A stretch of 64,000 bases of DNA from an uncultured delta proteobacterium (GTDB taxonomy: Bacteria; Desulfobacterota; Binatia; UTPRO1), in assembly GCA_963761995.1 (NCBI GenBank), contig CAVXIU010000003.1:8612-72611 (forward strand), written 5' to 3'. The first letter of the stretch is position 1. Every line of letters begins with the position of its first letter. A program made the position numbers and the translations under genes. The notes below the pieces were generated by a model that had not been told where the DNA came from, did not search any database, and saw nothing but the letters and a program-made list of their open reading frames with translations. This document shows, in pieces, positions 2,480 through 61,051 of this stretch.

Positions 2480-2836
2480 GTCTCGCTCCGCGTCTTTGCC
2501 GGCCGCTGCCCGTATTCGTCCAACTCAGCAGCGAGCGGGCCCGCCACGCGCTGCGTCAGGACTGCTCCTTTGCCAAGCAGCAGGACTCTCCCCCGGCGCT
2601 CCCGGTGGTCGTCTAACGGATAAGCCCGGTCCGCGCGAACGTGACGCTCGCTCCTCTCGTGATGCATACCCCTGCTCCGGCGGCCGTGCGAAGGCCGCCG
2701 CCTGTTGAGAAGCGACGCCTCGGTTTGCCCCTGAGCTCAGACGCGGATGCGCGGCTGCATCAGCGCCTTCTGGGCCTTCGCCCGCGCACAGGGCGTATTA
2801 GCATGATGCCCAGCAGGCAAAGGGAGATTGGCGAGC

Positions 2837-14393: not shown

Positions 14394-15096
14394 TTAGAGC
14401 TGCAGGCCGGCGCTGGCGGACATCATCGGTGCGCGCCGGGCGTGGACGGTGGCGATGATCTCTTCGGTGTCGATGCCCTGCAGGTAGATCGAGGTGGTGC
14501 CGAGGTTGGCGTGGCCGAGTTGGCGCTGGATCACGTTGAGCGGGACGCCTTCGCGGGCGAGCTCGACGGCGTGGGCGTGGCGCAGCTGGTGCGGCGCGAA
14601 GCGGCGCCGGATGCCCGCTTGCGCGGCGAGCCGGCGGAACTCGACGCGCGCGTTGGCGCTCGACCACGGCCGTCCGCGGGTCGGGCCGTCGATGACGCAG
14701 AACAGCGGTCCGATCGGCAGTTCAACCCGGGCGTCCAGCCAGGGGCGCAGTTGCTCCCAGCCCCAGGTGTCCATGCCGATCTCGCGGCGGCGACCGCCCT
14801 TGCCGTTGCGCACCAGCAGTGAGCCGCGCCGGGCGTCAAGGTCGCGCTCACCCAGCCCGAGTGCTTCCTGGATGCGCAGCCCGCTGCGCCAGAGCACGAT
14901 GATCAGCGCGCGCAGCCTGAAGCCGTGTCGGTCGTCGCCGGTCTGGCGCATCACCGCAATGATCTCCTCCACGGTCGGCGGGTCGGCGGGATAGAGCCGC
15001 CCCTTGTTGCGGGGCGGGCGCCCGGCGTGATAGCCCGGCAGCGTCGCCGGCGAACGCCGCCTGCCGGCGGCATCGAGGACTGGTGAAAACGGTCAT
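14394..15096 (-). CDS. Minimal tyrosine recombinase (catalytic domain), one-base frameshift near the start
   Basis: R (SGLRIQE), K (GKGG), HQLRH, LGH, Y (TSIYL); RBS GGAGG and ATG at 15096 are one base out of frame at a TTTT run. Confidence 0.85.
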
Positions 15097-25889: not shown

Positions 25890-25935
25890 ACGACTGAAAA
25901 TCGTGGTGTCCCCGGTTCGAGTCCGGGTCTCGCCA
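25890..25935 (+). repeat. att core: tRNA-Phe 3' part, copy 2
   Basis: Identical to 1888-1933; tRNA 5' half absent. Confidence 0.97.
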
Positions 25936-26383
25936 TCGCCCGCAAAGCCTGATAGCTGCTGAATCTCATTATTTCCGGGGTGTTGGACGAGATCCGCCAA
26001 TTGGGCCTGGGATGCTCCTGATTTGGGCCTGGCCGGCTGAAACGGCGGTAATCCCCGGTAACTGCTGGACATGCCCGGGTGGGCCGTGTGTCGGCCCTGG
26101 GCCGTCCCGATCCCCCATCGTGGTCTCCCGAGTTCGAGTCACACATGCCACGACGCGGCGATCTAGCGTCGCTGACCGGAGTCGTCGAACAGGACGTCCT
26201 CGCCGAGCTCGCTGCCGCACTGCATCGACGAGCAGACGTCGAGCCCGGTTCGGCCGACGCTGCTGTTCCTCGTCCCATGCGAGTGTCTGCGAGGCGGCAT
26301 GGGAACCCCCCGCGAACGACCGAGAGCGGGAGTCGTGAGAGATCCCCTTGCGCGGCGCGGATAACGGCTGCGAGGATCGGCGG

Positions 26384-33052: not shown

Positions 33053-33098
33053 ACGACTGAAAATCGTGGTGTCCCCGGTTCGAGTCCGGGTCTCGCCA
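33053..33098 (+). repeat. att core: tRNA-Phe 3' part, copy 3
   Basis: Identical to 1888-1933. Confidence 0.97.
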
Positions 33099-33522
33099 TC
33101 CCGAGAACCGCCTGCTAGTAGGTGATTTTCTTGTCGTTGAGGAGACAGTCCTCGTGGCCGAGATACGGGCCAATTTCGGTGCGAGTGCCTAATCGAGTGC
33201 CTAAACCGGAGGCCGCCTTGTGGCGCAGGCGTGCCAGCCGGCGGTGCTTACAGGACCCCTGACAAGCCCGTGGGATGTGCCCGCTGCTTCCTTGAGCACA
33301 TGGTGTAGCGAAGGCCTAGCTGTCGCGTCAGCCGAAGCGGCACTCGGGGTCTCCGCCGGGCGCGCTTCCCCTTTGCATGGAACGCAGCAGAGGACTGGCG
33401 ATCAGCGGGTGTCGGGTGTAGCGTGGCTCGTGGTAGTAGTCAAAAGCGCCGCTGGCAGCTGCCGGGCACCATCCACTTCCGACGCAACACGTCGCACTTG
33501 CGTGCGGACTGGATGACTGACC

Positions 33523-34215: not shown

Positions 34216-34315
34216 ACCGACACGCTGCCGCTTTGGACTGCCATGAAGGAGGGCCTCCCCGGTGGCACGCTCCGGCGTGTTGACCGAGGGAGCGAGCTCG
34301 AGGAGGCCCGTCTTG

Positions 34316-35362
34316 ATGTTGCACGCTGGATTGGATTTGAGTCGACGCAAGATCGACGTCTGCCTGCTGTCGGCGGGTGGCGAGATCGTCGAGGAGTTCG
34401 CGTCGCCGCCCGATGGCGAAGGCTTGCGCGGGCTGACGCGTCGGGTCGGGAGCCACGGGCTGGCGGTGCGTGGCGTGATCGAGTCGATGACCGGCGCGCG
34501 GTTTGTGCATGACCGGCTTGAGGAGCTCGGTTGGGATGTACTGATCGCCGACGCGGCCAAGGTCAAGGGCCTGGCGCCGCTGGCATGCAAGACCGACAAG
34601 ATCGACGCGCGGGTGCTGGCCGTGCTGTCTGAGCGTGACTTGGTCCCGGAGATCTGGCTGCCCGACCCCCGGGTCCGGCGCGAGCGTGAGCTGGCGCGCT
34701 TTCGGATGCATCTGGTCAAGCACCGCTCGATGCTCAAGCACCGCATCCACGCGACGCTGATCACCTTCGGGCACCCGTGCCCGGTCAGCGACCTGTTCGG
34801 CGTCGCCGGCCGCGAGCTGCTGGAGCGCCTCGCAATCCCGCAGCCGTGGCGCGGCACCGTCGACGCCAGCCTGGAGCTGATCGGCGACCTCGACCGCCAG
34901 ATCGATCAGATCAACAAGGACCTGCGCTCCTCAGGGGCCGATCACCCTTACGTGCCGCTGCTGCTGACCGTTCCGGGGATCGGTTGGGTGCTGGCGTTCA
35001 CGATCGCCGCCGAGATCGGCGACATCACCCGCTTCGCGTCAGCGAAGAAGCTCTGCGGCTACACCGGGCTCTGCCCACGCGTCAACCAGTCCGGTGATCG
35101 CGACCGCCGCGGCCCGCTGACCAAACAGGGCCCGAAGTACCTGCGCTGGGCGATGCTCGAAGCGACCATGCACGCCCTGCGCCACCCCGCCTACGCCGAG
35201 CGCTACCAGCGCACCAAGCGTCGCCTCGGCCGCCAACGCGGCGCCAAGGTCGCCCAGATCGACATCGCCAGAAAGCTCACCGAAGCGATCTGGCACATGC
35301 TCACCAACAACCAGCCCTTCACCCCCGCCCCGGGAGGCTCCACTTTTCGTCTGGCCGCCTGA
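34316..35362 (+). CDS. IS110 family transposase/recombinase
   Basis: RuvC-like DEDD (GLDLS, IES, KTDKIDA), VPGIG, GLCPRVNQSG. Confidence 0.95.
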   Translation: MLHAGLDLSRRKIDVCLLSAGGEIVEEFASPPDGEGLRGLTRRVGSHGLAVRGVIESMTGARFVHDRLEELGWDVLIADAAKVKGLAPLACKTDKIDARVLAVLSERDLVPEIWLPDPRVRRERELARFRMHLVKHRSMLKHRIHATLITFGHPCPVSDLFGVAGRELLERLAIPQPWRGTVDASLELIGDLDRQIDQINKDLRSSGADHPYVPLLLTVPGIGWVLAFTIAAEIGDITRFASAKKLCGYTGLCPRVNQSGDRDRRGPLTKQGPKYLRWAMLEATMHALRHPAYAERYQRTKRRLGRQRGAKVAQIDIARKLTEAIWHMLTNNQPFTPAPGGSTFRLAA

Positions 35363-35510
35363 CGGCCCTTTTGGACTTGAGCCCCCGGAGCCGGCCTCCA
35401 ATGTCGCCTGGTCCTGCCGATGAGCAGGCAATAGAGAGATGAGCGCCGCTCGCCACCGACCACACCCCGAAAGGCTCCACCGCCCACAGCACCAACGCCA
35501 TTGACAACAC
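35363..35510 (+). ncRNA. Putative bridge/seek RNA region of the IS1111 element
   Basis: Position typical of IS1111; contains TTTGGAC (matches the target junction) and ATAGAGA (matches the donor junction). Confidence 0.55.
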
Positions 35511-35554
35511 GCCCTTCTTCATAGAGACGAATCAGCAGTCGCAATACTTCTCGC

Positions 35555-35994: not shown

Positions 35995-36024
35995 GGCTGC
36001 TGCTTTGCATGGAAAGCAGCAGTC
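35995..36024. repeat. Palindromic repeat; 23 bp identical to 45787-45809
   Basis: GGCTGCTGCTTT-GCATGG-AAAGCAGCAGTC. Confidence 0.9.
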
Positions 36025-36276
36025 GCCGCCGCGACCGCCTCCCCGTCGCTTCCACGCGAACACGTGAGCGCCATCTCAGAGGCGTGATGGGCCTATCGGA
36101 ACCGGTAGATCGGGTACGAGGGCGCTGGGCGGCCTCGATCGCCGGCGAGGCACGGCCCTGCCGGCCCTCGTGGCGCGCGGCGTGCGTTCTCGCCGAGATG
36201 CGGTGACGCTCAGACTCGAGGCCATGGATGGGCAGGACGGGACTGCCACCGTCGGCTAGGCGGGTAGCGTCGTTCG

Positions 36277-45780: not shown

Positions 45781-45809
45781 GCTGTCGCTTTGCATGGAAA
45801 GCAGCAGTC
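45781..45809. repeat. Palindromic repeat copy
   Basis: GCTGTCGCTTTGCATGGAAAGCAGCAGTC, same orientation as 35995. Confidence 0.9.
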
Positions 45810-59924: not shown

Positions 59925-60293
59925 GCCGCCGCGCCGGTCAGGGCCTCGGCGCAAATGACCGGCCTCCCGCTTCGCACGCGCTAAGCAAGCGTCTCGGCGA
60001 CCTCGGCATAGATGCCCGCTCCGGACGAGCTACGACAGTCCTGCTCGGATTCCGGCTCGCTCTCGCATGATTCGCGAAGCAGGCGCGTAGCCTCAACCCT
60101 CCGTCTAGTGAGCGGCAGTGCGGCTAAGCGAAATCCTTACGCCGAGGACGTGCGGCGAAAAAATGGAGATGAGACGCCTCCATCTCCTGAACTGCGTGCA
60201 AAGCGCGCAAATAGCGGGCCCCTGCTTGAAGCTCTGGTCAGCGGAGAACCTCGTGGTTTCCAGGGATTGCGCGTCTTCAGCCAACACAGCCCG

Positions 60294-60340
60294 CACGACT
60301 GAAAATCGTGGTGTCCCCGGTTCGAGTCCGGGTCTCGCCA
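60294..60340 (+). repeat. att core: tRNA-Phe 3' part, copy 4
   Basis: Identical to 1887-1933. Confidence 0.97.
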
Positions 60341-61051
60341 TGTTGGGGCCCGGAATCCCGCATGTGCTGGATTCTCTGGTCGGTGGTGCAACGCATTCTC
60401 AAGCTTTGCCGCACACGGGCAGAAATCGTGGTCGTTTCAGTTCTAGTGACGAGGCCGCGAACCGCTTGCTCGGGGAGTGCCCCGGCCTTGTCCGCTTCCT
60501 GCGAAGGGTGTGGACCATCCGGCCGAAACGCGCCGCGATCTCCTTTTTGTCTCCGATTTCTTGAGGTTGGTCGAGGGTTGCGCACCCGCGCTCAGGCCTC
60601 GCGTCGTGCGAGATTTGGCCGGCGTCGCGGTGGCAGTCTGTTTGCCCGAGCACCGCGGTCTCGCGGCCCTGGCGCGCCGTCCATGCGCTGACTCACGTGC
60701 GGTGTCGGGAATGCCCGTACCCACGTCGGAGCGGGCGCCTGCAGAGTCACGGACGGACGCCCGCAAATCATCCCGAGCGGGCGTTGGCCGACGCGACTTC
60801 GAGGCGCTCGCTCCTCGTCCCAAGCGAGCGTTCGACGCCTGGACTCGGGGACGTTCGCTTCGATGGGGAAGAAGGAGCACTCGTTCCCGCTCGGTCCCTA
60901 AGCGTGCTGGTTGGCGCTCTGGGCGCCAGGTCGGGTCGGCGGCTGGGAGTGGGGCGATGGATCGCCGGTGCGCACGCGCGGGCTGCCCGGCACGGCCCGA
61001 GGGTCGGACCGTGCCGGGCACAAACGCGAAGCAGCGCGGCGCCTGCGGCTA

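Follow-up and report, generated by a model that had tools for sequence, protein, structure and literature searches.

The window, by which we mean the whole 64,000-nucleotide stretch of DNA that was analysed, carries an IS1111-type element of 1,290 bp at 34236-35525, counted by the convention that assigns 7 bp to the left extension and 3 bp to the right one. The copy is intact and its insertion point is intergenic, with a DUF4386 gene on one side and a glyoxalase-family gene on the other. The trinucleotide GAC stands on either side of the element, at 34236-34238 and 35526-35528, and the best explanation is insertion without target duplication other than this common GAC core. The sequence-only reading had placed the core at exactly these positions and had described the element as splitting a palindrome; the coordinates are confirmed and, as detailed below, 94 of 94 insertion events share this type of site. 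The sequence left of the core is GCTGCCGCTTTG (34224-34235). The element and the target that it splits comprise the following features.

34224..34238, + strand: left half of the split target, made of the arm GCTGCCGC, TTTG and the core GAC; fits the left part of the target logo
34236..34242, + strand: left terminal extension GACTGCC, 7 bp, with the core counted as part of the element
34243..34255, + strand: left subterminal inverted repeat ATGAAGGAGGGCC, complementary to 35510-35522 at 11 of 13 positions
34300..34306, + strand: GAGGAGG ahead of tnp, with the ATG nine bases after it
34316..35362, + strand: tnp, encoding a 348-aa DEDD transposase; likely start ATG 34316, stop codon 35360-35362
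35510..35525, + strand: right subterminal inverted repeat (35510-35522) and 3-bp right extension AGA (35523-35525)
35526..35542, + strand: core GAC followed by the right half of the split target, GAATCAGCAGTCGC (35529-35542); right part of the target logo

The tnp product matches the Pfam families PF01548 (3.7e-15, 56.5 bits), its N-terminal DEDD or RuvC-like domain, and PF02371 (1.8e-24, 86.3 bits), its C-terminal domain, and it scores 230.2 bits, with a cut-off of 140, against NCBIfam NF033542 ('IS110 family RNA-guided transposase'). Its translation contains GLCPRVNQSG, which has the form GL-P----S(t)G. According to the available part of PMC11187229, this motif is typical of IS1111 transposases, terminal extensions in IS1111 follow the rule of 7 bp left and 3 bp right, and the subterminal inverted repeats of the group are usually 11-13 bp. 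The subterminal repeats of the present clade (13 nt) match at 11 or more of 13 positions in 69 of 89 related elements. The non-coding ends measure 77 nt 5' of tnp (34239-34315) versus 166 nt 3' of it (35363-35528). The assignment to the IS1111 type, made earlier from the letters alone, is thus borne out by the subterminal repeats, the 7/3-bp extensions, the long 3' non-coding end and the GL-P----SG motif, and by every sequence-level defining feature tested the element belongs to the IS1111 group of the IS110 family. It is present in a single copy in its own assembly, and a search for other copies in 19 genomes of the order found none, returning only matches of 68 nt or less.

The element resides within the third segment of a tRNA-Phe repeat array, in a window that also carries a tyrosine recombinase gene on the minus strand (14478-14972). 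Downstream of the tRNA-Phe gene itself (1860-1935), its 3' end recurs three times as a direct repeat of 44-51 nt (25894-25938, 33057-33100 and 60291-60341), and a stretch at locus L027 matches all four of these places at 94-98%. Such repeats are the signature that several elements integrated in tandem at a tRNA gene would leave.

Relatives of the transposase are numerous: at least 8000 scored candidates passed, and among the 120 matches listed identity ranges from 79 to 97%, with metagenome proteins reaching the upper value. Plasmid-borne relatives are at best 35% identical. From these searches we assembled 159 related loci, 79 out of 261 matches in species-representative genomes and 80 out of 490 matches in metagenomes. 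All but one of the 79 genome loci stem from MAGs titled Solirubrobacterales or its families, Thermoleophilia, Actinomycetes, Actinomycetota and the like. Fuzzy anchors located the ends in the resulting 160 elements (the window counted), with a left end in 140, a right end in 137 and both in 120. One MAG carries six copies at six different sites (L017-L022), and in public soil runs near-identical right ends of the clade are joined to other flanks; together these indicate recent movement of the clade. At two loci (L042 and L035) the right end is cut after CATAG and continues into unrelated sequence that is common to both, which may reflect a second element inside the IS end, or a rearrangement.

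The target was defined from 98 elements (94 distinct events) for which both ends were known, each flank extended over at least 30 nt and the right end closed with GAC. All 94 events lie at one site type, consisting of an arm, NNN, GGAC/GA (the slash marking the insertion point), NNN and a complementary arm. Aligning the insertion sites of related copies had been proposed as a check, with insertion into unrelated sequence as the adverse outcome, and the view of an RNA-guided element specialised on one repeat family agrees with this shared pattern. The positions of the logo, numbered from the insertion point, are as follows (94 events).

-9: G 93%
-8: C 86%
-7 to -5: T 62-69%
-4 to -2: GGA 100%
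-1: C 86% (A 13%)
+1: G 92%
+2: A 97%
+3 to +5: A/G-rich
+6: G 69%
+7: C 75%

Since the outer parts of the logo are complementary arms, the element enters the loop GGAC/GA of a small palindrome. The site in the window fits the logo, with the right arm displaced by one base. Among the 65 events flanked on each side by 300 nt or more, 63 lie outside a coding-like frame. Abutment of targets to stop codons is no general rule, as just 8 of the 94 events have a coding-like gene end 60 nt away or less. In the left flanks of six loci (L071, L080, L067, L133, L072 and L114) the target directly follows a conserved gene end, ...AAGLSE/G plus stop, and there the stop codon is itself part of the palindrome arm. 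In one sub-clade (L097, L099, L100, L104, L106 and others) the left junction reads GGAA and the right junction GAC, and the left guide described below also reads GGAA; the two copies of the core thus need not be identical.

A target profile built from the 94 sites was then searched in the element's own assembly and in the flanks of the relatives. At E <= 1 it found 17 uninterrupted sites on contigs C3, C14, C9 and C2 (342 kb together) and 2 on contig C6 (7.0 Mb), as well as 19 further uninterrupted target-type sites in flanks of relatives. The matches in the window all fall between approximate gene calls; they occur in both orientations, some of them as facing pairs. The centre of the split palindrome had been said to recur uninterrupted, in reverse, at 2514-2523: the 10-mer is present, but on its own it is at chance level (1 match versus 1.10 expected), and with its arms it is a weak match to the target profile (2502-2536, minus strand, E 1.3). 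An uninterrupted sister palindrome with a different centre lies close to the element.

35996..36025, + strand: uninterrupted sister palindrome with the same arms and the centre GCATGG, 19 nt after the glyoxalase-family gene

The GCATGG centre type recurs at about position 45787 of the window and in the right flanks of L067, L069, L080 and L134. Frequently such a palindrome comes just a few bases past a GGACGA-type site, and the four arms could then pair in two ways. The inverted-repeat finder missed the palindrome family. The target is a REP-like family located between genes, unlike an integron attC site or a cassette array, attC sites being judged here from context. A search for RAYT proteins yielded borderline PF01797 matches, all on C6 and none on C3, C14, C9 or C2 (the assembly is 82.6% complete), and the PF01797 and PF00589 searches of the element's own genome revealed no recombinase linked to the repeats. 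Target palindromes are more than 100 times denser on C3, C14, C9 and C2 than on C6; C3 and the main contig are not distinguished by GC content or tetranucleotides. Perhaps the small contigs derive from another organism than the main contig, and uneven density of such palindromes is a useful flag for bin purity.

Two segments near the 3' end of tnp match the two flanks of the target, and conserved stems surround them.

35336..35340, + strand: closing stem of the predicted target-binding loop, 5' strand GGCTC, pairing with 35379-35383
35341..35352, + strand: right-target guide CACTTTTCGTCT, in the last codons of tnp; covariation n=104
35353..35367, + strand: inner hairpin GGCCG / CCTGA / CGGCC, with the stop TGA (35360-35362) in its loop
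35369..35376, + strand: left-target guide TTTTGGAC, in the same sense as the left flank plus core; covariation n=101
35379..35383, + strand: closing stem, 3' strand GAGCC
35413..35428, + strand: second hairpin CCTGC / CGATGA / GCAGG (35413-35417 with 35424-35428), 3 of 5 pairs varying on both sides, 97.5% paired
35441..35451, + strand: small predicted hairpin GAGC / GCC / GCTC, 99% paired, free of two-sided changes and unproven

The left-target guide was compared with the flank of its own element in 101 distinct cases, obtained from 109 elements with both ends and flanks of at least 15 nt (105 distinct, of which 4 could not be parsed); L064 and L140 had been left out beforehand as misaligned. 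At positions -6, -5 and -1, identity between guide and flank is 0.76, 0.81 and 0.87 versus 0.68, 0.52 and 0.65 in shuffled pairs, and at each of these positions 0 of 1000 shuffles were as high. Guides ending in GGGAC occur at GGGAC sites in 5 of 5 events, and those ending in CGGAC at CGGAC sites in 10 of 15. In the window the left guide matches its target at 7 of 8 bases. The segment TTTGGAC (35370-35376), singled out beforehand as matching the target junction, is therefore a genuine target guide by its covariation with the left flank, and it is extended by one more T (35369).

The reverse complement of the right-target guide reads one base, then the GAC core, then the right flank. It was compared in 104 distinct events, after removal of 12 anchorless loci, of L093 and L094, which were mis-anchored, and of ends lacking the final GAC. 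Identity is 0.52 at +3 and 0.63 at +4, versus 0.40 and 0.44 when shuffled (0 of 1000 as high in both cases), and 0.63 versus 0.58 at +5 (17 of 1000 as high). Consecutive matches of 7-11 bases occur in 32 events (for example L023, L051, L075 and L125) and of 6 bases in 18; another 46 match over GAC plus GA only, and 8 over fewer bases. In the window the right guide matches GAC plus GAA. Since 46 of 104 events are right-matched only over GAC plus GA, specificity beyond about ten target bases is loose. The proposed check of guide-target covariation thus came out in favour of guidance on both sides, each target guide covarying with its own flank. Part of this covariation could arise because hosts differ in their repeats; matching between guide and target would still be implied. 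A second conserved segment (35400-35408) was considered as right-target guide and rejected for want of covariation with the right flank.

Both guides cover GAC and thus overlap at the insertion point, with the complement of the top strand placed 5' and the match to the bottom strand 3'. The same order, top-strand complement first and overlap at the insertion point, is given for IS1111 seekRNAs in the available part of PMC11187229. The base 3' of the core complement is a U, which could pair with the A before the right-end GAC, or wobble with the G before the target GAC. These pairings may recall the handshake positions of IS621, as far as they are described in the accessible part of PMC11208158.

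The structure of the region was assessed with RNAalifold and a pair count on an alignment of 103 distinct sequences. In the closing stem, one pair is U-A in 10 sequences versus G-C in 91, and when the stem is extended upstream its second pair is also compensated (C-G in 22 and U-A in 2 of 25 distinct combinations). In the inner hairpin (35353-35357 with 35363-35367), 3 of 5 pairs vary on both sides (for example C-G in 53 versus G-C in 50), and 99.8% of cells are paired. Overall, 98.8% of cells are paired versus 37-51% in slid controls, and two-sided changes amount to 107 cells versus 30.5 in shuffles (0 of 500 as high). With these stems around them, the two target guides constitute the two strands of an internal loop that surrounds a hairpin. 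The comparison of related sequences shows three stems and two target guides as well as the limits of the element and its common target. Folds of single sequences are no better than those of shuffles (z -0.24 and +0.70), and Rfam holds no family that matches the RNA, with two sub-threshold chance matches and tRNA alone at gathering score. When alifold was given only the sequence 3' of the stop codon, it placed the guide in a dubious pairing; this structure was discarded in favour of the one obtained with the upstream part. Folding had been proposed for 35363-35510. The left guide does lie inside this interval, but the predicted RNA starts upstream of it, as the right guide and half of the closing stem (35336-35352) are in tnp. 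With a guide inside tnp, a search that begins downstream of tnp overlooks half of the target loop.

Because the right guide overlaps the gene, the codon under its variable part encodes 12 different amino acids among 47 distinct variants; the R-L-A-A tail of the transposase is nearly constant. We lean, if only slightly, towards a dual-coding scenario in which the right guide lies in the last tnp codons and the stop codon in a hairpin loop, retargeting rewrites a protein tail that is free to vary, and the guide RNA is cut from the tnp message, so that guide and enzyme are physically coupled. This layout may be undescribed for IS1111 elements.

Downstream of the target-binding loop lie candidate elements for recognition of the donor and an outward-facing putative promoter motif.

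35400..35412, + strand: conserved segment AATGTCGCCTGGT, 5' side of the second loop; candidate right-donor guide
35431..35438, + strand: candidate left-donor guide ATAGAGAG, copying the right end ATAGAGAC (35521-35528) in the same sense
35501..35506, + strand: outward-facing TTGACA, 28 to 23 nt from the right end

The segment ATAGAGA (35431-35437) had been read as a match to the donor junction. It does copy the right end, but the support is thinner than for the target guides, as the right end is nearly invariant. The segment is conserved in all 103 aligned sequences and reads ATAGAGAC in most other lineages; in the window it differs from its own right end at the last core base (G versus C). 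The candidate guide and the right end are changed alike in L089 and also in L140; L074 is mismatched at a single base, and L093 and L094 differ between the two places, with uncertain anchoring. An extra GA before the core at the right end (L019, L020, L026, L034 and L115) produces a full match to the candidate. Right ends with and without this extra GA coexist in one MAG. Since the right end hardly varies, covariation is a weak test here, and ATAGAGA(G) is a plausible candidate for the left-donor guide. A right-donor guide was not found: complementarity of 35400-35412 to the left end is partial and inconsistent, with a good fit in few lineages only.

The TTGACA pointed out at 35501 near the right end proved to be a constant of the clade, lying at exactly the same distance in 96 of 100 distinct right-end tails. 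A search for a complete sigma-70-type promoter inside the linear element found none. In a circle, the hexamer 17 nt downstream of TTGACA would span the junction, which would fit the junction promoter of the family. Two RNA libraries from two studies yielded contigs over 35228-35530, one of which continues into flanking DNA; such coverage is not proof of transcription or of a discrete RNA. Four public runs (X1, X2, X15 and X16) contained no read joint for an empty site or for a circle.

We consider it very probable that an intact IS1111-group element here occupies the loop of a REP-like palindrome and encodes a bridge or seek RNA starting within the 3' end of tnp. The RNA would begin inside the 3' end of the gene with a first module, the putative target-binding loop, made, in this order, of the 5-bp closing stem, the right-target guide, the hairpin that carries the stop codon and the left-target guide. 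A second module would follow, consisting of a hairpin and then the copy of the right end, and it probably binds the donor, that is, the circle junction. TTGACA is probably the -35 element of a promoter that only the joined ends in the circle complete; tnp would be transcribed from this junction promoter, and processing of its transcript would yield the RNA. In the production of the RNA, the formation of a circle, the recognition of the donor and the chemistry of the reaction, the element presumably follows its family.

It is possible, but improbable, that the transposase reads the hairpin shape or the sequence of the palindrome through protein contacts alone and that the guide matches are by-products. 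The target is a potential hairpin whose invariant part (GGAC/GA) is short, and 46 of 104 events are right-matched over the invariant bases alone. However, on both sides of the insertion point the variable positions of the target track the variable positions of the guides, and the guides are framed by stems with compensatory changes. NCBIfam moreover places the transposase in an RNA-guided family, and published IS1111 elements need RNA, as stated in the available part of PMC11187229.

A different scenario would assign the element to the IS1111-attC subgroup and regard the palindromes as recombination sites of an integron-like cassette array. Although its target is a folded site and the genes on either side of it are short and share one strand, we judge this very unlikely: the sites in the window lie between genes of both orientations encoding up to 1,096 aa, including some facing pairs, no RNA or attC-type family reaches threshold, the only tyrosine recombinase of the contig (14478-14972) is about 20 kb away, and the best plasmid-borne relatives are only 35% identical. 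That the guide-like matches are due to chance or to captured pieces of flank is scarcely conceivable. Matches of seven bases are individually common and the 10-mer at 2514 is at chance level, but over 100 elements at diverse sites carry their matches at the same two positions, which vary with the site. An RNA-guided IS1111 element that targets a REP-like palindrome thus remains the reading that we prefer.

The mechanism is a known one, first described in 2024, and the palindrome-targeting element is a new family member. This IS1111 clade, from an under-studied, uncultured, high-GC soil lineage, adds an unusually clear natural record of guide-target matching in the form of about 100 independent insertions that arose naturally. 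Rules can be read from these insertions: the core measures 3 nt, the left side takes about 7-8 nt and the right side 5-11 nt, and mismatches beyond GGAC/GA are tolerated. The insertions also define a REP-like repeat family in these genomes, and they show that a guide can overlap coding sequence, which matters for the annotation and the reprogramming of such elements.

IS621, of the IS110 group, targets REPs. Its bridge RNA is similar to the predicted RNA in that both guides include the core, as described in the accessible part of PMC11208160. In IS621 the RNA lies in the left end, with the left guide before the right, whereas here it would lie in the right end, with the right guide before the left; the core is a CT dinucleotide there versus the 3 nt GAC here. 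The element also has long subterminal repeats, unlike IS621. A similar layout is found in the seekRNAs of ISEc11 and ISXne4, which have two short target matches in the same order that overlap at the insertion point; for these elements the available part of PMC11187229 reports natural retargeting among relatives and an only promoter that forms at the circle junction. Their targets are Tn21-type terminal repeats, in contrast to the intergenic palindrome here, and the present system is known from sequence alone. ISKpn4, ISPst6 and ISPa25 (IS1111-attC) are likewise of the IS1111 type and, by the account accessible in that paper, home to a folded recombination-type site, but the targets in the window are devoid of a cassette-array context.

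The closest described analogue in behaviour, compared by description only and within the portion of PMC11187229 available, is ISPa11, an element of the IS1111 family from Pseudomonas aeruginosa whose insertions occupy a constant position within a REP, a repeat with the potential to fold. Both are of the IS1111 type with subterminal repeats, and the transposase binds an RNA from the 3' non-coding region in ISPa11 and is predicted to do so here (PMC11187229). The present element differs from ISPa11 in belonging to a high-GC soil lineage, in targeting another repeat family and perhaps in carrying one of its guides within the tnp frame.
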